The notes: generated by a model from the sequence alone, not told the origin. Shown: positions 1 through 32,610, counted from the stretch's first letter. The stretch is 64,000 bases of DNA from Escherichia coli (GCF_016026235.1 NZ_CP065613.1), one strand, 5' to 3'. Numbers and translations: made by a program.

Positions 1-881
1 AATAAACCATGGTGATTTCCCGGCAGTACGAGCTTTAGCCGTCACCGATGGTCTGGTTGCTCTTTCCTTCGAGCGTTTAAATCAACGACCTTTAGGCTTA
101 CTTTTATAAAGATAAAAATGCCCTTCATGTTGTGCATTTTTATCTCGACCCAGCAGGCCTTCACCTAAATAAATTGCTGTCGTTGATGCTTTTGTGCCTG
201 AGTCCGACACCTTTTCCCAGCCATTACCAACATTGTAATAATGATTGCCCAGTACCCGGCAAATATAGGTCCAGCCACGGGAGCGGAGCTGTTGGAACCA
301 TCGCCCCTGAAAACCGGCATCTGTAATAACAATGACATCAGTCCCGGGGGAAAAGCACTCAGCAAGCGATTCCAGAAAACGCTCATGTACATCTGCATTC
401 GCTGTCTGTGATGATGGAACGACACAACTCATCAACGGTAAAGAACGCCCGTCACATGCCAGGCTTGCCCGCAAAAGCTGAAAACGAGAGGCATGATAAG
501 CACTCCAGTCAATGAGTATCACAACACGAGACATTCCCCGCGTAATCTTTTGGGTAATTCGCTGAAAAATGGTGGAAACCTCATTTTGCAAATGTCGATT
601 CCCCAACAGTCGATCCACCCGCTTTATTTTGTTTTTAACTGATGCCGTACCGGTTAAATGACGCCCGATACTGGTAAGTGTGAGGGAAGCGCCATTTATT
701 ACAGCATTAGTTGCGTCAATCAGTGATTTTTGACGGTAAAGATGCAAAGGGGCCAGTATGTTGTTAAGGAAATTTTGGCATAATGAACGTGCAGGCATAG
801 TGGTGATCTCCTTGAAATTGTTAGCACAATCAATTAGATCACATCTCACTATGCCTGTCTTGTTTTCTGGGGATTCCTCAG
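1..881 (-). mobile_element. IS10-like (IS4-family) insertion sequence, copy 1, partial (runs off the left edge); outside end CTGAGGAATCCCC at 869-881
   Basis: Encoded protein has IS10-type motifs (KRVDRLLGNRHL, ILIDWS, VITDAGF); terminal sequence resembles the IS10 outside end; bases 7544-8303 are an inverted copy of the same element. Confidence 0.8.
82..798 (-). CDS. IS10-like transposase, 238 codons ending at an in-frame TGA (82-84); the same frame continues transposase-like beyond it
   Basis: ORF track 82..1125 from internal Met (MPARSLCQNF...); identical over 225 aa to the copy at 7627-8303; resemblance to IS10 Tnp is from memory. Confidence 0.75.
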   Translation of the reverse strand: MPARSLCQNFLNNILAPLHLYRQKSLIDATNAVINGASLTLTSIGRHLTGTASVKNKIKRVDRLLGNRHLQNEVSTIFQRITQKITRGMSRVVILIDWSAYHASRFQLLRASLACDGRSLPLMSCVVPSSQTANADVHERFLESLAECFSPGTDVIVITDAGFQGRWFQQLRSRGWTYICRVLGNHYYNVGNGWEKVSDSGTKASTTAIYLGEGLLGRDKNAQHEGHFYLYKSKPKGR

Positions 882-2027
882 GGAAATATCCTGCATTAAC
901 GCAGGCCACGCCCGATACCAGCCAGGGCGTTGCAAAAGCGCCGGAACATGCTGATAACGCTGTAGAATATCCCACAGCAGGCTGCGCTCGACGTTGTGAT
1001 GATAAAGCGCAAACAGATTTTGCGGCTCGCGGTGCTGGCAGGCGCTTATCAGCGTTTGTGCCGCCGCCTGCGCGCCAGTCAGCGCCATATCCATGCCGCG
1101 CACGGAAATTCCGGTATTGACGCAACTGCGCAACGCATCGCCCACCAGCAGCCAGCCGTTACCGGCGTATTGCACCGGCATACTGTGCAAGCCACCTTCT
1201 GGCACCAGATGCGCACCATACTCCAGTGATTCCGTGTTTTTGATAAGCGGGCGCACTGCCGGATGCGCTTTAAAGCGAGTCAGCAGCTCGCTTGCCGGAA
1301 CACGACTTTGCGTAAGGGAAGAGAGCGGGCAAACAATCCCTAACGAGAGCGTTTGTTGATTAGTATAAAGAAATGCGCCGCTGGGTAAGTCATCACAGAT
1401 CCTGCCGCTGAACAGCAACGCTGCGCCTTCGTTATTCTCCAGATGAAAACGTTCTTCAATAGCGGATGTTTCCAGCGACAGCACTTCTTTGATCCCCAAC
1501 GCCATCGCTTCGCCAGCAGGACGAGTCACTAACCCGTGACGTTCAGCCAGGACGCTGTTGGCACCTTCTGCCAGCACCACATAACGGGCGCGGAGAATAT
1601 CGTCACCACAAATGACACCACACACTCTGCCGTTTTCTTCATACAGTGCATCCACCGTCGCACCAGGGATGCATTCGACACCTTCTTTTTCGGCTTCGGC
1701 AACCAGCCACGGATCGAACCGTGCACGTAATACACTCCAGGATTCACCGCCGGGCTGTAAGCTGGAAAACGTCGTTGCGCCATCCGGCGTTAACAGGGAA
1801 AGGCTTTCGTGAGTGATGCGTCGTTCAAGAGGCGCGGTCAGATGAAACTGAGGGAGGAGTTCCGCGAGTGCATGGGTATATAACCGCCCGCCGGAAAGAT
1901 TTTTGCTGCCGGGGATTTCAGCGCGTTCCAGTAACAAAACGGATAAACCCGCTCGCGCGCAGCGTAACGCGCAAGCGGTGCCTGCAATACCGGCACCAAT
2001 AATAATAATGTCGCAGTCGTCTTCCAT
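882..2027 (-). pseudogene. ygcN: ygcN (FixC-like FAD-dependent oxidoreductase), 3' end truncated by the IS insertion at 881
   Basis: N-terminal FAD motif DIIIIGAGIAG; ORF runs into IS sequence about 40 codons short of the ~423 aa I recall for K-12 YgcN; start codon (2027 vs 2057) uncertain. Confidence 0.7.
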
Positions 2028-2104
2028 GTCATGCCCCAGATATCCAGAACACAACACCCTAACATAGCGTTACTTAAGGGAAATTGACCGCCGACACACT
2101 CTTA

Positions 2105-2470
2105 TCATTCGCCGCGATAGATACAACCAGCGGTGCAGGTTTCTTTTACCATCACCGCACTTAACAGCGGCACAACGGGTTTAACCTGATCCCAAATCCA
2201 TTTTGCTAAAACTTCGCTGGTCGGGTTTTCCAGGCCTGGAATATCATTGAGATAATGGTGATCGAGGCGCTCATAAGTTGGCTTAAACGCTGCTTTCAGT
2301 TCAGCGAAATCGATAATCCAGCCCGTATGCGGATCGACTTCCCCGGTAATTTCCAGTCGCACCATAAAGGAATGCCCGTGCAGGCGACCACATTTATGCC
2401 CTTCCGGGACGTGTGGTAAGCGGTGAGCGGCTTCGAAGGTGAAATCTTTAAATAACGTGGTGGACATCAT
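2105..2470 (-). CDS. queD: 6-carboxy-5,6,7,8-tetrahydropterin synthase QueD
   Basis: 121-aa product [35 protein letters not shown]...; divergent from cysJ as in E. coli. Confidence 0.9.
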
Positions 2471-2785
2471 AATTTCTCTACAGGACGATAAAACCGCCGT
2501 AGAGTACCGGAAAGGCTGTTTTTTCGCATTATCTAAAACGACTTTGTTGCGCAAAATCGCTGATTTATCTTAATGATTGGCTAAATTCATTTGTTTTTCA
2601 TTAGGTTGGTTAATCTATTTTGTTGTTAAAGACTATTGCTAAAACAGGTTAGTCGATTTGGTTATTAGTTATCGCTATCCCGTCTTTAATCCACACCGTT
2701 CACCCCGTTAACCTTACCTTCTCTTCTGTTTTATGGGCGCTGACAGGGCGCAGAAACAGCTTTGCTTACTGGAACATAACGACGC

Positions 2786-4585
2786 ATGACGACACAGGTC
2801 CCACCTTCCGCGTTGCTTCCGTTGAACCCGGAGCAACTGGCACGCCTTCAGGCGGCCACGACCGATTTAACTCCCACCCAGCTTGCCTGGGTTTCTGGCT
2901 ATTTCTGGGGCGTGCTCAATCAGCAGCCTGCTGCGCTTGCAGCAACGCCAGCGCCAGCCGCAGAAATGCCGGGTATAACTATTATCTCCGCCTCGCAAAC
3001 CGGCAATGCGCGCCGGGTTGCTGAAGCATTACGTGATGATTTATTAGCGGCAAAACTGAACGTTAAGCTGGTGAACGCGGGCGACTATAAATTCAAACAA
3101 ATCGCCAGCGAAAAACTGCTTATCGTGGTGACGTCAACGCAAGGAGAAGGGGAACCGCCGGAAGAAGCCGTCGCGCTGCATAAGTTCCTGTTCTCCAAAA
3201 AAGCGCCGAAGCTGCAAAACACCGCATTTGCCGTGTTTAGCCTCGGCGATAGCTCTTATGAATTTTTCTGCCAGTCCGGGAAAGATTTTGACAGCAAGCT
3301 GGCGGAACTGGGCGGTGAACGCCTGCTCGACCGTGTCGATGCCGACGTTGAATACCAGACCGCTGCCAGCGAGTGGCGCGCTCGCGTGGTTGATGCGCTT
3401 AAATCGCGTGCGCCTGTCGCGGCACCTTCGCAATCCGTCGCTACTGGCGCGGTAAATGAAATCCACACCAGCCCGTACAGCAAAGACTCGCCGCTGGTGG
3501 CGAGCCTCTCTGTTAACCAGAAAATTACCGGGCGTAACTCTGAAAAAGACGTTCGCCATATCGAAATTGACTTAGGTGACTCGGGCCTGCGTTACCAGCC
3601 GGGTGACGCGCTGGGCGTCTGGTATCAGAACGATCCGGCACTGGTGAAAGAACTTGTCGAACTGCTGTGGCTGAAAGGCGATGAACCTGTCACCGTCGAG
3701 GGCAAAACGTTGCCTCTGAACGAAGCGCTACAGTGGCACTTCGAACTGACCGTCAACACCGCCAATATTGTTGAGAACTATGCCACGCTTACCCGCAGCG
3801 AAACGCTGTTGCCGCTGGTGGGCGATAAAGCGAAGTTACAGCATTACGCCGCGACTACGCCGATTGTCGATATGGTGCGCTTCTCTCCGGCGCAACTGGA
3901 CGCCGAAGCGCTGATTAATCTGCTGCGCCCGCTGACGCCGCGTCTCTATTCCATCGCCTCCTCGCAGGCGGAAGTCGAGAACGAAGTACACGTCACCGTT
4001 GGTGTGGTGCGTTACGACGTGGAAGGCCGCGCCCGTGCCGGTGGTGCCTCCAGCTTCCTCGCGGACCGCGTGGAAGAAGAGGGCGAAGTTCGCGTATTTA
4101 TCGAACATAACGATAACTTCCGCCTGCCCGCTAACCCGGAAACCCCGGTGATTATGATTGGCCCAGGCACCGGCATCGCGCCGTTCCGCGCCTTTATGCA
4201 GCAGCGCGCCGCTGACGAAGCGCCGGGTAAAAACTGGCTGTTCTTTGGCAACCCGCATTTTACGGAAGATTTCCTCTACCAGGTGGAGTGGCAGCGCTAC
4301 GTCAAAGAGGGCGTGCTGACACGTATCGATCTCGCCTGGTCGCGCGATCAAAAAGAAAAAGTTTACGTACAAGACAAACTGCGCGAACAGGGCGCGGAGC
4401 TGTGGCGCTGGATCAATGACGGTGCCCACATTTATGTCTGCGGCGACGCTAATCGCATGGCGAAAGACGTTGAGCAGGCACTTCTGGAAGTGATTGCCGA
4501 ATTTGGTGGCATGGACACCGAAGCGGCGGATGAATTTTTAAGTGAGCTGCGCGTAGAGCGCCGTTATCAGCGAGATGTCTACTAA
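2786..4585 (+). CDS. cysJ: Sulfite reductase [NADPH] flavoprotein alpha subunit
   Basis: 599-aa ORF, flavodoxin plus FAD/NADPH reductase domains, first gene of cysJIH. Confidence 0.95.
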
Positions 4586-6297
4586 TGAGCGAAAAACATC
4601 CAGGGCCTTTAGTGGTCGAAGGAAAACTGACAGACGCCGAGCGCATGAAGCTTGAAAGCAACTACCTGCGCGGCACCATTGCGGAAGATTTAAACGACGG
4701 TCTGACCGGCGGCTTTAAGGGCGACAACTTCCTGCTGATCCGCTTCCACGGCATGTATCAGCAGGATGACCGCGACATCCGCGCCGAACGTGCTGAACAG
4801 AAGCTGGAGCCGCGCCACGCGATGCTGTTGCGCTGCCGTCTGCCGGGTGGGGTGATTACCACTAAACAGTGGCAGGCGATCGACAAATTTGCCGGTGAAA
4901 ACACCATCTATGGCAGCATTCGCCTGACCAACCGCCAGACGTTTCAGTTCCACGGCATTCTGAAAAAGAACGTCAAACCGGTGCACCAGATGCTGCACTC
5001 GGTCGGTCTTGATGCGCTGGCGACCGCTAACGACATGAACCGTAACGTACTCTGCACCTCGAACCCTTACGAGTCGCAGCTACACGCGGAAGCGTATGAA
5101 TGGGCGAAGAAAATCTCTGAACATCTGCTGCCGCGTACCCGCGCGTATGCGGAGATCTGGCTCGATCAGGAAAAAGTCGCCACCACCGATGAAGAACCGA
5201 TCCTCGGCCAGACCTACCTGCCGCGTAAATTCAAAACCACGGTAGTGATCCCGCCACAGAACGATATCGATCTGCACGCCAACGACATGAACTTCGTGGC
5301 AATCGCCGAAAACGGCAAGCTGGTGGGCTTTAACCTGCTGGTGGGCGGTGGGCTTTCCATCGAACACGGCAACAAGAAAACCTACGCCCGCACCGCGAGT
5401 GAGTTTGGCTATCTGCCGCTGGAGCATACGCTGGCAGTGGCGGAAGCCGTCGTGACAACTCAGCGTGACTGGGGTAACCGAACCGATCGTAAAAATGCCA
5501 AAACCAAATACACGCTGGAGCGCGTGGGGGTTGAGACGTTTAAAGCGGAAGTGGAGCGTCGCGCGGGGATCAAATTCGAGCCGATTCGCCCGTATGAGTT
5601 TACCGGACGCGGAGATCGTATTGGCTGGGTTAAGGGCATTGATGATAACTGGCACCTGACGCTGTTTATCGAAAATGGTCGCATCCTTGATTATCCGGGG
5701 CGTCCGCTGAAAACCGGCCTGCTGGAGATCGCGAAGATCCACAAAGGCGATTTCCGCATTACGGCGAACCAGAATCTGATCATCGCCGGTGTGCCGGAAA
5801 GCGAGAAAGCGAAGATCGAGAAGATCGCTAAAGAGAGCGGGTTAATGAATGCCGTCACGCCGCAGCGTGAAAACTCAATGGCCTGCGTGTCATTCCCGAC
5901 TTGCCCGCTGGCGATGGCGGAAGCGGAGCGTTTCCTGCCGTCTTTTATCGACAACATCGATAATTTAATGGCGAAACATGGTGTCAGCGATGAGCATATC
6001 GTGATGCGTGTAACAGGCTGCCCGAACGGTTGTGGTCGCGCGATGCTGGCGGAAGTGGGCCTGGTGGGTAAAGCGCCGGGTCGCTACAACCTGCATCTTG
6101 GCGGCAACCGTATTGGGACACGTATCCCACGGATGTATAAAGAAAACATCACCGAGCCGGAAATCCTGGCGTCGCTTGATGAACTGATAGGGCGCTGGGC
6201 GAAAGAGCGCGAAGCGGGTGAAGGCTTCGGCGACTTTACGGTGCGTGCGGGCATCATTCGCCCGGTGCTCGATCCGGCGCGCGATTTGTGGGATTAA
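4585..6297 (+). CDS. cysI: Sulfite reductase [NADPH] hemoprotein beta subunit
   Basis: 570-aa ORF, start overlaps cysJ stop (ATGA). Confidence 0.95.
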
Positions 6298-6313
6298 CCA
6301 TCAGCCCGGTCTT

Positions 6314-6350
6314 GTAGGCCTGATAAGACGCGTGAGCGTCGCATCAGGCA
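6314..6350. repeat. REP-like palindromic unit in the cysI-cysH spacer
   Basis: GTAGGCCTGATAAGACGCG...GCGTCGCATCAGGCA inverted repeat. Confidence 0.6.
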
Positions 6351-6370
6351 AGGCAAACAGTGAGGAATCT

Positions 6371-7105
6371 ATGTCCAAACTCGATCTAAACGCCCTGAAC
6401 GAACTGCCGAAGGTAGATCGCATTCTGGCGCTGGCGGAAACTAACGCCCAACTGGAAAAACTGGACGCTGAAGGCCGCGTAGCTTGGGCGCTGGATAATC
6501 TGCCCGGTGAATATGTACTTTCTTCCAGCTTTGGCATTCAGGCGGCGGTGAGCCTGCATCTGGTGAATCAAATTCGCCCGGATATTCCGGTGATCCTCAC
6601 CGATACCGGTTACTTGTTCCCGGAAACCTACCGCTTTATTGACGAGTTAACGGACAAACTCAAGCTCAACCTGAAAGTGTACCGTGCTACCGAAAGCGCA
6701 GCCTGGCAGGAAGCACGCTACGGAAAACTGTGGGAACAGGGCGTTGAAGGCATTGAAAAGTACAATGACATCAACAAAGTCGAACCGATGAACCGGGCGC
6801 TGAAAGAACTTAACGCGCAAACGTGGTTTGCTGGCCTGCGCCGTGAACAATCCGGCAGCCGCGCCAATTTACCGGTGCTGGCAATTCAGCGTGGCGTATT
6901 TAAAGTGCTGCCGATTATCGACTGGGATAACCGAACGATATATCAGTATCTGCAAAAGCATGGCCTGAAATATCACCCATTATGGGACGAAGGATATTTA
7001 TCGGTGGGCGATACCCATACAACCCGTAAATGGGAACCCGGCATGGCGGAAGAAGAAACGCGTTTCTTTGGCTTAAAAAGGGAATGTGGGTTACACGAAG
7101 GGTAA
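6371..7105 (+). CDS. cysH: Phosphoadenosine phosphosulfate (PAPS) reductase
   Basis: 244-aa product [31 protein letters not shown]...; the ORF track extends upstream, start chosen at MSKLD. Confidence 0.93.
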
Positions 7106-7122
7106 ATATTGCCGGATAAATT

Positions 7123-7160
7123 AAACGCCTCTGTCAGAAATGATGGGGGCGTTTTTATTT
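7123..7160 (+). terminator. Putative rho-independent terminator of cysJIH
   Basis: AAACGCCTC...GGGGGCGTTT stem followed by TTTTATTTT immediately after the cysH stop. Confidence 0.45.
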
Positions 7161-7368
7161 TGCGAGCAGCATTCCTGATTTTAAACGTGAACGCCGCTGG
7201 AAGAATTATCAGGTATAGAATGGCGTCGGGTGCTTGAGGCTGTCTGGCGTTAAGCATTCGCGAGGTTCCAGATGGACAAAAGCCCCAGGCGATATTTCTA
7301 TCAACCTGAGGCTCGCGTTCGAACGTAGCAATTCGAATGTTAGTCTCTTCTTTGCAGGGAGGCAAGAC

Positions 7369-7521
7369 ATGCTGACAAAATATGCCCTTGTGGCAATCAT
7401 AGTGCTGTGTTTTACAGTACTGGGATTCACGCTGATGGTAGGCGACTCGTTGTGTGAGTTGAGTATCAGAGAACGTGGTATGGAGTTTAAGGCTGTTCTC
7501 GCTTACGAATCGAAGAAGTAG
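7369..7521 (+). CDS. hokX: Hok/Gef-family type I toxin (50 aa) with an in-frame upstream Mok-like extension back to 7234; position matches the hokX/sokX locus next to cysH
   Basis: [50 protein letters not shown] carries the Hok motifs SLCE..IR and AYES; SD GGGAGG 7-14 nt upstream; gene name by position, from memory. Confidence 0.7.
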
Positions 7522-7543
7522 CCACCACGCGGGGGTAAAACCC

Positions 7544-8303
7544 CTGAGGAATCCCCAGAAAACAAGACAGGCATAGTGAGATGTGATCTAATTGATTGTG
7601 CTAACAATTTCAAGGAGATCACCACTATGCCTGCACGTTCATTATGCCAAAATTTCCTTAACAATATACTGGCCCCTTTGCATCTTTACCGTCAAAAATC
7701 ACTGATTGACGCAACTAATGCTGTAATAAATGGCGCTTCCCTCACACTTACCAGTATCGGGCGTCATTTAACCGGTACGGCATCAGTTAAAAACAAAATA
7801 AAGCGGGTGGATCGACTGTTGGGGAATCGACATTTGCAAAATGAGGTTTCCACCATTTTTCAGCGAATTACCCAAAAGATTACGCGGGGAATGTCTCGTG
7901 TTGTGATACTCATTGACTGGAGTGCTTATCATGCCTCTCGTTTTCAGCTTTTGCGGGCAAGCCTGGCATGTGACGGGCGTTCTTTACCGTTGATGAGTTG
8001 TGTCGTTCCATCATCACAGACAGCGAATGCAGATGTACATGAGCGTTTTCTGGAATCGCTTGCTGAGTGCTTTTCCCCCGGGACTGATGTCATTGTTATT
8101 ACAGATGCCGGTTTTCAGGGGCGATGGTTCCAACAGCTCCGCTCCCGTGGCTGGACCTATATTTGCCGGGTACTGGGCAATCATTATTACAATGTTGGTA
8201 ATGGCTGGGAAAAGGTGTCGGACTCAGGCACAAAAGCATCAACGACAGCAATTTATTTAGGTGAAGGCCTGCTGGGTCGAGATAAAAATGCACAACATGA
8301 AGG
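7544..8303 (+). mobile_element. IS10-like insertion sequence, copy 2, truncated (outside end plus 5' part of transposase), interrupted by IS4
   Basis: Begins CTGAGGAATCCCC 22 bp after the hok stop; inverted duplicate of 1-881; ends where the IS4 left end begins. Confidence 0.8.
7627..8303 (+). pseudogene. IS10-like transposase truncated after codon 225 by the IS4 insertion (the ORF reads 9 more codons into IS4)
   Basis: Identical to the 82-798 product up to ...DKNAQHEG, then diverges into the IS4 left end. Confidence 0.8.
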
Positions 8304-9729
8304 TAATGCCGATCAGTTAAGGATCAGTTGACCGATCCAGTGGCTGTGTAAGAATCCGGAAACGCTCACTTGTTTCCGGATTTTTTTATGCACATTGGAC
8401 AGGCTCTTGATCTGGTATCCCGTTACGATTCTCTGCGTAACCCACTGACTTCTCTGGGGGATTACCTCGACCCCGAACTCATCTCTCGTTGCCTTGCCGA
8501 ATCAGGTACTGTAACGCTACGCAAGCGCCGTCTTCCCCTCGAAATGATGGTCTGGTGTATTGTTGGCATGGCGCTTGAGCGTAAAGAACCTCTTCACCAG
8601 ATTGTGAATCGCCTGGACATCATGCTGCCGGGCAATCGCCCCTTCGTTGCCCCCAGTGCCGTTATTCAGGCCCGCCAGCGCCTGGGAAGTGAGGCTGTCC
8701 GCCGCGTGTTCACGAAAACAGCGCAGCTCTGGCATAACGCCACGCCGCATCCGCACTGGTGCGGCCTGACCCTGCTGGCCATCGATGGTGTGTTCTGGCG
8801 CACACCGGATACACCAGAGAACGATGCAGCCTTCCCCCGCCAGACACATGCCGGGAACCCGGCGCTCTACCCGCAGGTCAAAATGGTCTGCCAGATGGAA
8901 CTGACCAGCCATCTGCTGACGGCTGCAGCCTTCGGCACGATGAAGAACAGCGAAAATGAGCTTGCTGAGCAACTTATAGAACAAACCGGCGATAACACTC
9001 TGACGTTAATGGATAAAGGTTATTACTCACTGGGACTGTTAAATGCCTGGAGCCTGGCGGGAGAACACCGCCACTGGATGATACCTCTCAGAAAGGGAGC
9101 GCAATATGAAGAGCTCAGAAAACTGGGTAAAGGCGATCATCTGGTGAAGCTGAAAACCAGCCCGCAGGCACGAAAAAAGTGGCCGGGACTGGGAAATGAA
9201 GTGACAGCCCGCCTGCTGACCGTGACGCGCAAAGGAAAAGTCTGCCATCTGCTGACGTCGATGACGGACGCCATGCGCTTCCCCGGAGGAGAAATGGCGG
9301 ATCTGTACAGTCATCGCTGGGAAATCGAACTGGGATACAGGGAGATAAAACAGACGATGCAACTGAGCAGGCTGACGCTGAGAAGTAAAAAGCCGGAGCT
9401 TGTGGAGCAAGAGCTGTGGGGTGTCTTACTGGCTTATAATCTGGTGAGATATCAGATGATTAAAATGGCGGAACATCTGAAAGGTTACTGGCCGAATCAA
9501 CTGAGTTTCTCAGAATCATGCGGAATGGTGATGAGAATGCTGATGACATTGCAGGGCGCTTCACCGGGACGTATACCGGAGCTGATGCGCGATCTTGCAA
9601 GTATGGGACAACTTGTGAAATTACCGACGAGAAGGGGAAGGGCCTTCCCGAGAGTGGTAAAGGAGAGGCCCTGGAAATACCCCACAGCCCCGAAAAAGAG
9701 CCAGTCAGTTGCTTAACTGACTGGCATTA
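8304..9729 (+). mobile_element. IS4, complete 1426-bp element with imperfect terminal inverted repeats (TAATGCCGATCAGTTAAGG ... CTTAACTGACTGGCATTA)
   Basis: Length, terminal repeats and encoded InsG match IS4; flanks (ACAACATGAAGG left, CGACATTTGCCG right) are not a direct repeat. Confidence 0.9.
8388..9716 (+). CDS. insG: IS4 transposase InsG (442 aa)
   Basis: [36 protein letters not shown]... near-identical to E. coli IS4 transposase as remembered. Confidence 0.92.
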
Positions 9730-9764
9730 CGACATTTGCCGGGGTTATGAGCATAACGTAATGC

Positions 9765-11282
9765 TTATTTCACCGGACGCATCGCCGGGAACAGAATAAC
9801 ATCGCGGATGGTATGGCTGTTGGTGAACAGCATTACCATACGGTCGATACCAATCCCCAGACCTGCTGTCGGCGGTAAGCCATGTTCCAGTGCGGTAACG
9901 TAATCTTCATCGTAGAACATCGCTTCGTCGTCACCTGCGTCTTTCGCGGCAACCTGATCCAGGAAGCGTTGCGCCTGATCTTCCGCGTCATTCAGCTCGC
10001 TAAAGCCGTTACCGATTTCACGACCACCGATGAAGAACTCAAAGCGGTCTGTGATTTCCGGGTTAATGTCGTTACGACGCGCCAGCGGAGAAACTTCTGC
10101 CGGATATTCAGTAATAAAGGTCGGCTGAATCAGATGTGCTTCTGCCACTTCTTCGAAGATCTCGGTAACGATACGGCCCAGACCCCAGCTCTTCTCAACG
10201 TGGATACCGATAGATTCAGCAATCGCTTTCGCAGAGTCGAAGTTATCCAGATCCGCCATGTCGGTTTCTGGGCGATATTTCTTGATCGCTTCACGCATGG
10301 TCAGTTTTTCGAACGGTTTACCGAAGTCCAGCGTCACGTCGCCGTAGGTCACTTCCGTCTTACCGAGAATATCCTGTGCCAGAGTACGGAACAGCGATTC
10401 GGTCAGCTCGATCAGATCTTTGTAATCTGCGTAAGCCATGTAGAGTTCCATCATGGTGAACTCTGGGTTATGACGTACGGAGATACCTTCGTTACGGAAG
10501 TTACGGTTGATTTCGAATACACGCTCGAAGCCACCGACCACCAGACGCTTGAGGTACAGTTCCGGCGCGATACGCAGGTACATGTCGAGATCCAGCGCGT
10601 TATGGTGGGTGATAAACGGACGCGCAGCGGCACCGCCAGGGATCACCTGCATCATCGGCGTTTCAACTTCCATAAAGCCGCGGTTCACCATGAACTGGCG
10701 AATACCAGAGAGGATCTGCGAGCGTACTTTAAAGGTGTTACGGGATTCATCGTTAGAGATGAGATCCAAATAACGCTGACGATAGCGCGCTTCCTGATCC
10801 TGCAAGCCGTGGAATTTATCCGGCAGCGGACGCAGTGCTTTGGTCAGCAGACGCAGCTCGGTACAGTGGATAGACAGTTCGCCGGTTTTGGTTTTGAACA
10901 GTTTACCTTTCGCGCCGAGGATGTCGCCGAGGTCCCATTTTTTGAACTGCTCGTTGTAAACGCCTTCCGGCAGATCGTCACGGGCAACGTACAGCTGAAT
11001 GCGGCCCCCCACATCCTGCAGGGTAACGAAAGACGCTTTACCCATAATACGACGGGTCATCATGCGGCCAGCAACGGCGACTTCGATGTTCAGCGCTTCC
11101 AGTTCTTCGTTCTCTTTACCGTCGAATTCTGCGTGCAATTGGTCAGAGGTATGATCGCGACGGAAATCGTTCGGGAAGGCAATCCCCTGCTCGCGCAGGT
11201 TCACCAGCTTCTCACGACGCGTTTTCAGTTCATTGTTAAGATCGACTACCGCGTCAGCGCCCTGTGCGTGTTGTTCAGACAT
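9765..11282 (-). CDS. lysS: Lysyl-tRNA synthetase, constitutive
   Basis: 505-aa class II aaRS; directly downstream of prfB. Confidence 0.95.
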
Positions 11283-31069: not shown

Positions 31070-31253
31070 ATTTCTCTGAGATGTTCGCAAGCGGGCCAGT
31101 CCCCTGAGCCGATATTTCATACCACAAGAATGTGGCGCTCCGCGGTTGGTGAGCATGCTCGGTCCGTCCGAGAAGCCTTAAAACTGCGACGACACATTCA
31201 CCTTGAACCAAGGGTTCAAGGGTTACAGCCTGCGGCGGCATCTCGGAGATTCC
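31070..31253 (+). ncRNA. ssrS: 6S RNA (RNA polymerase sigma-70 regulatory RNA)
   Basis: Begins ATTTCTCTGAGATGTTCGCAAGCGGGCCAGTCCCCTGAGCCG and ends ...GGCGGCATCTCGGAGATTCC, matching E. coli 6S RNA from memory; ends +/- 3 nt. Confidence 0.88.
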
Positions 31254-31876: not shown

Positions 31877-31937
31877 GGGCGATACACCTGCATCGCGCTG
31901 ATTGACATCGTTGATTCTTTAACCTAATTTAGTGAGT

Positions 31938-32082
31938 AAGGGTAAGGGAGGATTGCTCCTCCCCTGTGACTGACTGTTAATAAGCTGGGAAACTTATGAG
32001 TAACAGTACAATCAGTATGATGGCAAGTCGCATCATAACCCTTCTCCTTCAAGCCCTCGCTTCGGTGAGGGCTTTACCGTTA
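31938..32082 (+). ncRNA. sibC: Sib antisense RNA (type I antitoxin), copy 1; ends approximate
   Basis: Promoter TTGACA-17bp-TAATTT at 31902-31930; fully overlaps the ibs ORF on the opposite strand; hairpin AAGCCCTCGCTTCGGTGAGGGCTTT at 32051-32075. Confidence 0.5.
31977..32036 (-). CDS. ibsC: Ibs-family type I toxin, 19 aa (MMRLAIILIVLLLISFPAY)
   Basis: Reverse complement of 31977-32036 translates to an Ibs peptide; SD GGAGAAGGG upstream on the minus strand. Confidence 0.75.
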   Translation of the reverse strand: MMRLAIILIVLLLISFPAY

Positions 32083-32329
32083 CAGCCCCATGCTGCCCAG
32101 TTATCGTAAGCTCTCTTTAAATAACCGCAACGCATTGATCTACCTTTAAATCTTTTCTTCGAGCGCGCTCGAAAAACCCCATGCAAAACAGAGATAATTT
32201 TTGGGAAAAAGGATCTATTACGGCAGTAAACGTGGGCGATGAAGTGGCTATCAAAAAGTTCGGTTCAGGGCGATGCACCCCGCATCGCCCTGATTGACAT
32301 CGTTGATTCTTTGACCTAATTTAGTGAGT

Positions 32330-32474
32330 AAGGGTAAGGGAGGATGACTCCTCCCCTGAGACTGACTGTTAATAAGCTCCGAAACTTATCAGTAACAGTA
32401 CAATCAGTATGATGACAAGTCGCATCATAACCCTTCTCCTTTAAGCCCTCGCTTCGGTGAGGGCTTTACCGTTA
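32330..32474 (+). ncRNA. Sib antisense RNA, copy 2; ends approximate
   Basis: Same promoter and hairpin as copy 1, shifted 392 bp. Confidence 0.5.
32369..32428 (-). CDS. Ibs-family type I toxin, 19 aa (MMRLVIILIVLLLISFGAY), second copy
   Basis: Reverse complement of 32369-32428; differs from copy 1 at two residues. Confidence 0.75.
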   Translation of the reverse strand: MMRLVIILIVLLLISFGAY

Positions 32475-32610
32475 CAGCCCCATGCTGTCCCGCCATCGTA
32501 AATCCCCATTAAATAAACACAACGCATTGATCTGAGTTTGATTTATTTTCTGGAGCAGACTCGCAAAGTAGAATGCGCAACGCGGCAACGGTGTGGAGAA
32601 GGGATAAAAA

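Follow-up and report, generated by a model that had tools for sequence, protein, structure and literature searches.

An ISEc60-IS4 joint between hok and lysS in Escherichia coli as one end of a 125.8-kb inversion with a deletion of roughly 10 kb

An insertion sequence (IS) joint located between the hok and lysS genes was analysed in a 64,000-nucleotide stretch of Escherichia coli DNA (the window). The joint (7544-9741) is one end of a real 125.8-kb inversion and carries the scar of a deletion of roughly 10 kb. The inversion was probably generated by recombination between two inverted copies of ISEc60, one inserted between cas3 and hok (ISEc60(a)) and one in xanQ (ISEc60(c)), combined with an IS4-associated deletion of the 3' part of ISEc60 and of xanQ through idi. 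A probability of about 0.6 is assigned to this whole path. The window corresponds to contig UGFA01000002.1 (4.56 Mb) of GCA_900449985.1 in reverse, the record coordinate being 3,752,384 minus the window coordinate.

The genes cysJ, cysI and cysH and a hok/sok locus lie upstream of the ISEc60 that begins at 7544. The hok/sok regulatory RNA region (7228-7384, + strand), which lies upstream of hok, was recognized by the Rfam model RF01794 for sok (106.7 bits; gathering score 59). Among the native genes of the inverted block, the hok-family toxin gene (7369-7521, + strand, 50 aa) comes last. Its NCBIfam matches to the HokA/Hok families (E 9e-16) are under the curated cut-off, and its counterpart in E. 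coli FDAARGOS_943 is annotated as a Hok/Gef family protein. On the other side of the joint, lysS (9765-11282, - strand) is the first gene of the non-inverted block, which continues with prfB, recJ, dsbC and xerD onward; the genes of this block were named from the list of open reading frames and from the annotation of the identical FDAARGOS_943 DNA. The lysS stop codon is found at 9765, 35 bp past the IS4, the distance given in the initial annotation of this DNA. The inversion of the cysJIH-hok block relative to the lysS block, also described there, holds when either E. coli or the closest relatives serve as the reference.

The first part of the joint, originally reported as a truncated IS10-like element, is ISEc60 (the RefSeq name), a member of the IS4 family with IS10-type ends CTGAGGAATCCCC and a full length of 1294 bp. 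Bases 1-760 of ISEc60, its 5' 59%, occupy 7544-8303 (+ strand) and match the full copies at 759 of 760 positions, the private change C122T being the sole SNP. The element is indeed cut off, at an IS4 target site, and does not resume beyond the IS4 in the window. A truncated ISEc60 transposase open reading frame of 234 aa (7627-8331, + strand) crosses this boundary and stops after 28 nt of IS4. ISEc60 has CT... ends, and its 1294 bp agree with the length given for the IS10 subgroup (1200-1350 bp; PMC2266710); unlike that subgroup, for which 9-bp repeats are listed, most of the ISEc60 copies examined have a 10-bp flanking repeat, and the repeat at the hok/cas3 site is 11 bp long. A literature search on ISEc60 returned nothing relevant.

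A second ISEc60 copy is present at window positions 1-881 (- strand) and is inverted relative to the copy at 7544. It comprises bases 1-881 in reverse with one mismatch, the nonsense change A798T, and the rest lies off the window start. This copy is not truncated at the IS4 site, and its full version (locus L025, 9084-10377) has hybrid flanks without a direct repeat. The suggestion that both window copies end at the same base (repeat arms 122-883 and 7542-8303) was rejected, as window positions 1-121 are also ISEc60. The 100% identity of these arms is a rounded figure, the two copies differing at two SNPs.

A complete IS4 (8304-9729, + strand) follows ISEc60 base 760. Its length of 1426 bp and the integrity of both TAATGCC... 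inverted-repeat ends, claimed at the outset, were reproduced base for base. The element shows 99-100% identity with annotated IS4 copies, including 99.7% with the IS4 of E. coli MS 21-1 when aligned end to end. An open frame (8370-9716, + strand) encodes the IS4 transposase, which scores 303.8 bits with NCBIfam NF033592 (single DDE transposase, IS4 type; cut-off 115), and the Pfam domains Nterm_IS4 and DDE_Tnp_1 are recorded for the called gene. The IS4 of K-12 (insG; IS4 subgroup) likewise has 1426 bp, TAATGCC... repeats and a transposase of 442-448 aa, and it inserts at narrow palindromic targets with duplications of 11-14 bp. Unlike the K-12 element, the window copy lacks a duplication of its own and has flanks from two different IS4 sites. 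The left half-site ACAACATGAAGG (8292-8303) is the spacer of the palindrome GATAAAAATGC-N12-GCATTTTTATC inside ISEc60, and the right half-site CGACATTTGCCG (9730-9741) is the centre of the idi-lysS intergenic hairpin. These 12-bp flanks differ, as had been noted, and there is no direct repeat between them.

Every full IS4 extracted from the loci fetched for comparison was surveyed for its flanks. A direct repeat of 11-14 bp was found at 13 distinct sites and was absent in only four contexts, the window copy included; the missing duplication is therefore not trivial. Intact IS4 sites follow a marked common pattern in which the duplicated 11-14 bp lie between a short stem and its complement, preceded by an A-tract and followed by a T-tract, and each flank of the window IS4 is half of such a site. 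The absent duplication is a mark of exchange after insertion and no argument against the identity of the element as IS4; here, the lack of a duplication at an otherwise intact IS was a correct sign of a rearrangement.

Both half-sites are known as complete IS4 insertions in other genomes. In MS 21-1, IS4 occupies the same idi-lysS position in the same orientation, with a perfect 12-bp CGACATTTGCCG duplication, and the site is likewise occupied by IS4, in the orientation of the window, in RMDEC465 and two further genomes of other strains. Judged by these sequences, the idi-lysS intergenic hairpin is a recurrent IS4 target. An intact nest of ISEc60(1-760), IS4 and ISEc60(750-1294), with the same orientation and left junction as in the window and an 11-bp duplication (TSD CAACATGAAGG), is found in GCA_901482675.2 (locus L060). 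The left flank of the window IS4 is thus the left junction of this nest and its right flank is the right junction of MS 21-1, the arrangement expected after a deletion between direct IS4 copies. The window IS4 reads as a recombinant joint, its left junction derived from one insertion site and its right junction from another. The specificity of IS4 in the arms of its target has been called "spectacular" (PMC2266710). Nests of ISEc60 and IS4 in opposite orientation occur on invasion plasmids, and one hit (H10) has an opposite-orientation IS4 beside the 3' part of ISEc60. Another hit (H16), first taken for an ISEc60::IS4 nest, proved to be an unrelated IS4 in the yddM-fdnI spacer.

Protein look-ups that used iap and a frameshifted fragment of cas3 led to the far breakpoint, which lies in the same contig (locus L027). 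The cas3 frameshift yields a 378-aa fragment and is shared by the nearest relatives, among them GCA_002466675.1 and GCA_001907535.1, two draft assemblies that break at IS copies. The order there is ygfK, ssnA, ygfM, xdhD, xanQ codons 1-18, a complete ISEc60 and cas3, followed by cse1 through cas2, iap and cysD. The far ISEc60 (L027 8526-9819) encodes an intact 396-aa transposase and is oriented opposite to the window fragment at 7544-8303 (+ strand) in the contig. The ISEc60 5' ends of the two breakpoints are 125,773 bp apart, each pointing towards the segment of the other. From the K-12 map, the inversion of about 126 kb probably falls within one replichore. The expectation that a reciprocal junction lies outside the window was borne out in that the other end of the inversion is found about 126 kb away, but it failed in that no IS4 is present there. 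The reading proposed initially, one reciprocal exchange within a pair of inverted IS4 copies, predicts idi, IS4 and the ISEc60 remainder at the far end. The far end reads instead xanQ 5' end, ISEc60, cas3, with neither IS4 nor idi in L027. The search for a second IS4 with reciprocal half-sites was also negative among the called genes of GCA_900449985.1, in which no junction of IS4 with the ISEc60 3' part was detected by exact look-ups of the expected 145-aa and 118-aa open reading frames. The 145-aa ISEc60 3' frame occurs in other assemblies only, and the five copies of the 118-aa frame in GCA_900449985.1 each lie within an A798T pseudogene copy. An inversion by IS4 x IS4 recombination could therefore have taken part only within a path of several steps.

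The target duplication of ISEc60(a) is split between the two breakpoints. The hok-side flank reads ...GGGGGTAAAACCC directly before the ISEc60 5' end and ends with ...CGCGGGGGTAAAACCC; the left half of the duplication, GGGTAAAACCC, lies at 7533-7543, and its partner lies beside cas3 at L027 9820-9830. The cas3-side flank reads GGGTAAAACCCCGCG directly after the ISEc60 3' end. The empty cas3-hok site is cacgcgggggtaaaaccccgcg in the E. coli locus L034, and E. coli genomes without ISEc60 at this position read cacgcgggggtaaaaccccgcgtattg. Because the hok and cas3 flanks together rebuild the empty site, they are the halves of a single 11-bp duplication, produced when one ISEc60 entered the cas3-hok interval. 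The far ISEc60 copy has the hybrid flanks AGGATCGCCC and GGGTAAAACC; the xanQ half AGGATCGCCC stands at its 5' end, and the fourth half is gone with the deletion. Inverted ISEc60 copies at both ends and exchanged duplication halves are what recombination between inverted ISEc60 copies leaves behind. On the evidence of these flanks, the duplication exchanged between the breakpoints is that of ISEc60 and not that of IS4. It took the far breakpoint and two close relatives to establish that ISEc60 marks the ends of the inversion and IS4 marks the deletion; the inverting element can be another than the IS seen at the joint.

The base-level agreement of the two breakpoints also bears on whether the joint exists in the chromosome. 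Repeats might have been mis-joined in the long-read assembly, the real chromosome being collinear with FDAARGOS_943; the 234-aa chimeric open reading frame next to lysS was found by exact-protein look-up in one assembly only (GCA_900449985.1), on whose correctness the joint rests, and the genome contains many copies of ISEc60 and IS4. Such an artefact is very unlikely. The breakpoints are consistent at the base level and carry complementary duplication halves, and the repeat block is just 2.2 kb long. A mis-join would not connect IS4 exactly to ISEc60 base 760 and to the target centre in the idi-lysS spacer while removing 10 kb. The joint was absent from 5,426 complete E. coli genomes, and being shared by none of these the event is specific to the strain or its sublineage.

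The state before the rearrangement is preserved in close relatives. E. coli FDAARGOS_943 is 100.0% identical to the window over 9730-34000, 99.9% over 34001-58900 and 99.97% over 884-7543. This strain has cysJIH-hok-ISEc60(a) followed by iap, the cas genes having been lost separately, and xdhD-xanQ5'::ISEc60(c)::xanQ-guaD-ghxQ-ygfS-ygfT-uacT-idi-lysS. Its ISEc60(a) and ISEc60(c) have opposite orientations and are separated by about 137 kb. The copy (c) has its own AGGATCGCCC duplication around it, and the xanQ-ISEc60 junction is 100% identical to that of GCA_900449985.1. The idi-lysS spacer of FDAARGOS_943 contains a single unoccupied CGACATTTGCCG and no IS4. In the second relative, GCA_901482675.2, the order cysJIH-hok-ISEc60-cas3 is uninverted and idi-lysS is also without IS4. 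Since a close relative has both ISEc60 copies, each with its own duplication, no inversion coupled to transposition is needed; a composite-transposon or duplicative-inversion origin of the second ISEc60 was likewise set aside as needless, the xanQ copy of the relative having its own duplication. In both relatives IS4 is absent from idi-lysS and from ISEc60(a), and several events must therefore have occurred on a short branch.

A synthetic junction built from FDAARGOS_943 flanks, ISEc60 1-760, IS4 and the lysS side matches the window at 3183 of 3186 bases. The DNA absent between the breakpoints (about 10 kb) comprises ISEc60 bases 761-1294, the xanQ remainder, guaD, ghxQ, ygfS, ygfT, uacT and idi. 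In FDAARGOS_943 terms this is 10,535 bp, namely 534 bp of ISEc60 and 10,001 bp from xanQ codon 19 to idi. Within the 10,001-bp segment of FDAARGOS_943, at L065 15521-25521, lies an IS1 which may be unique to this strain. On the 4.56-Mb contig of GCA_900449985.1, the YgfS allele carried by the relatives was not found.

In the favoured path, ISEc60(a) would have inserted between cas3 and hok, ISEc60(c) in inverted orientation at xanQ codon 18, and IS4 in the idi-lysS intergenic hairpin. Recombination between (a) and (c), presumably homologous and of the RecA type like the later exchange, would then have inverted the DNA running from hok to the 5' end of xanQ, giving the order hok-ISEc60, xanQ remainder through idi, IS4, lysS. 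A further IS4, oriented like the idi-lysS copy, is proposed to have entered ISEc60 at the hot spot spanning bases 749-760; this second copy would have been transient and is hypothetical in this lineage. Recombination between the two direct IS4 copies would have removed ISEc60 761-1294 and the genes from the xanQ remainder to idi and left a single IS4, with its left flank from the ISEc60 site and its right flank from the idi-lysS site. The order of these steps is conjectural, and the deletion may equally have come before the inversion.

Three orders of events over the four elements (ISEc60(a), ISEc60(c), IS4 at idi-lysS and IS4 at ISEc60 749-760) lead to an identical sequence. The first would be the ISEc60 x ISEc60 inversion followed by the IS4 x IS4 deletion, and the second the IS4 x IS4 deletion followed by an inversion in which the ISEc60 copies recombine across the 760 bp that are left. 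In the third, IS4 copies in ISEc60(a) and at idi-lysS would recombine as inverted repeats and make the inversion, with a later ISEc60 deletion. The far end would at first read cas3, ISEc60(1294-750), IS4, idi to the xanQ remainder, ISEc60(c), the xanQ 5' end and xdhD; recombination of the 534-bp ISEc60 remnant with the now direct ISEc60(c) would delete IS4 and idi through xanQ and restore a full-length ISEc60 beside cas3. The end product equals that of the favoured path base for base, and the four elements involved are again those observed in relatives. L060 documents an IS4 inserted in ISEc60 with the required orientation, and in the ancestral order it would be inverted relative to the idi-lysS IS4. 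Homology in the deletion step is limited to 534 bp, whereas the favoured path uses 1294 and 1426 bp, and the predicted reciprocal junction is absent, no IS4/ISEc60-3' junction surviving in GCA_900449985.1. With ISEc60 making the inversion in two of the three orders, an inversion by IS4 first is considered a rather unlikely alternative.

ISEc60 is favoured as the inverting repeat because both inverted copies are in place in a near-identical relative, because it is used in two of the three orders and because the homologies are longer. This remains a preference and not a demonstration, since neither an intermediate genome nor an informative SNP was found. Exact-protein look-ups with cas3, cse1, cse2, XdhD, Idi and YgfS revealed no genome that was inverted and undeleted or deleted and uninverted, and the common alleles in this search returned generic E. 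coli arrangements only. No ISEc60 SNP was informative as a marker of the crossover point or of event order: C122T is private to the hok-side fragment and C527T to the FDAARGOS_943 xanQ copy, and A248C occurs in the copies of the relative.

Given a prior ISEc60 x ISEc60 inversion, the deletion might also have been made by the transposase in one step, from a single IS4 and with no second copy at any time. In such an intramolecular or one-ended transposition, an IS4 at idi-lysS or in ISEc60 would have kept one end in place and directed the other at the second hot spot some 10 kb distant. In favour of this path, each flank coincides exactly with an IS4 target centre at the usual positions of cleavage, and the very short branch would have to accommodate one event less. 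The extremely narrow target choice of IS4 makes two hot spots 10 kb apart plausible partners. Adjacent deletions by IS10 are rare. The IS4-family elements that have been studied (IS10, IS50 and IS231A) transpose by cut-and-paste (PMC2266710), for which adjacent deletions are not normal. Nothing in the sequence separates a transposase-made deletion from recombination between two copies, and the former is regarded as improbable. If it were true, the target specificity of IS4 would predetermine which deletions the element can make.

The favoured path, inversion between ISEc60 copies with an IS4-associated deletion, resembles rearrangements described in Shigella and enteroinvasive E. coli (EIEC), in which inverted IS copies give rise to inversions and direct copies to deletions (Seferbekova et al. 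2021, PMC8072062). In that survey, 103 of 114 reconstructed inversions fell on Shigella branches, IS4-family elements were among those expanded in Shigella, and ISs inserting independently at one locus seeded different rearrangements (PMC8072062). As in those cases, both breakpoints lie in IS copies and the flanking duplications are exchanged; unlike them, two IS types are combined in one joint. The event is a new instance of a well-known, routine IS-mediated process. The inverted segment between inverted ISs and the loss of adjacent DNA are also reminiscent of the inversion/deletions and duplicative inversions familiar from Tn10/IS10 genetics.

The genome is IS-laden and of the Shigella/EIEC type. 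It contains dozens of ISEc60 copies, as well as IS1, IS4 and IS110-family elements and decaying cas genes, and it has relatives with pINV plasmids. The deletion removed from this locus a cluster for purine and urate uptake and catabolism (xanQ, guaD, ghxQ, ygfS, ygfT and uacT), together with idi. Their probable loss from the genome fits the reductive, IS-driven genome decay that is typical of Shigella-like lineages.

The flanks of IS4 copies in L002, L048 and L050-L060 were compared with those of the copy under study (window 8275-8303 and 9730-9760). All 13 insertions with intact duplications lie centrally in palindromes composed of an A-tract, stem, loop, stem and T-tract, and the centre of each palindrome is the 11-14 bp IS4 duplication. 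These palindromes look like bidirectional terminators. A site inside ISEc60, GATAAAAATGC-N12-GCATTTTTATC, matches this target pattern, and IS4 insertions in it are known in both orientations.

Another hybrid joint, similar in kind to that in the window, was identified in Logan contigs of 5 kb, which derive from four sequencing runs (L005-L008). These contigs contain, in this order, an IS110-family gene, ISEc60 (bases 1-760), IS4 and unrelated DNA (AGGCCGCCGGGG...), and the 3' part of ISEc60 is absent after IS4. The single-nucleotide polymorphism T734C is present in the contigs. Recombinant joints between truncated ISEc60 and IS4 are therefore recurrent in this bacterial group.

ISEc60 flanks were read in L001, L019, L022-L026, L061 and L065. 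When the element is taken as 1294 bp (CTGAGG...CCTCAG), its direct repeats are 10 bp in length and not 9 bp, the value given for IS10-subgroup elements. Its targets resemble GG(G/A)...(T)CC(C), with approximate symmetry. At the hok-cas3 insertion of ISEc60, the flanking repeat is GGTAAAACCCC in the relative GCA_901482675.2 (L032 8515-8530 and 9815-9835) and GGGTAAAACCC in the source genome (window 7530-7545 and, at the far inversion breakpoint, L027 9815-9835). Both repeats are 11 bp in length, with a one-base shift between them. Either the hairpin received ISEc60 twice, independently, or one of the assemblies contains paired homopolymer errors.

The type I-E CRISPR-Cas locus that adjoins this far breakpoint in the source genome, outside the window, is decaying. 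Examination of L027 10001-12689 and 14897-15514 revealed that cas3 is broken into two open reading frames (378 and 521 aa) and that cas7 is reduced to 205 aa. The entire locus is gone between ISEc60 and iap in FDAARGOS_943 (NZ_CP065615.1).

FDAARGOS_943, labelled Escherichia coli in RefSeq, is nearly identical to the source strain across about 49 kb (window 9730-58900). This genome contains more than 30 copies of ISEc60 together with ISSso6, ISSfl1, IS1 and IS66, and appears to belong to a Shigella or enteroinvasive lineage placed under an E. coli label. Its counterpart of window 34001-58900 is longer by about 690 bp, probably an additional insertion sequence.

The ISEc60 copy at the left edge (window 1-881; full copy at L025 9084-10377) has no target duplication, its flanks being GGATATTTCC and GAGAATGCCC. 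On one side of it lies ygcN, truncated at the 3' end with 392 of its 423 aa remaining, and on the other side part of a FAD_binding_4 gene that appears to be ygcU. Loss of ygcO through ygcS in a separate deletion is therefore the probable origin of this joint. This copy carries the nonsense change A798T, which is common to at least five further copies in the source genome.

The window encodes 6S RNA (ssrS, 31070-31253) and two Sib antitoxin RNAs in tandem (RF00113; 31902-32052 and 32294-32444). The two Sib copies account for the sole direct-repeat family detected in the window by repeat search (289 nt, 88% identity; region 31887-32567).
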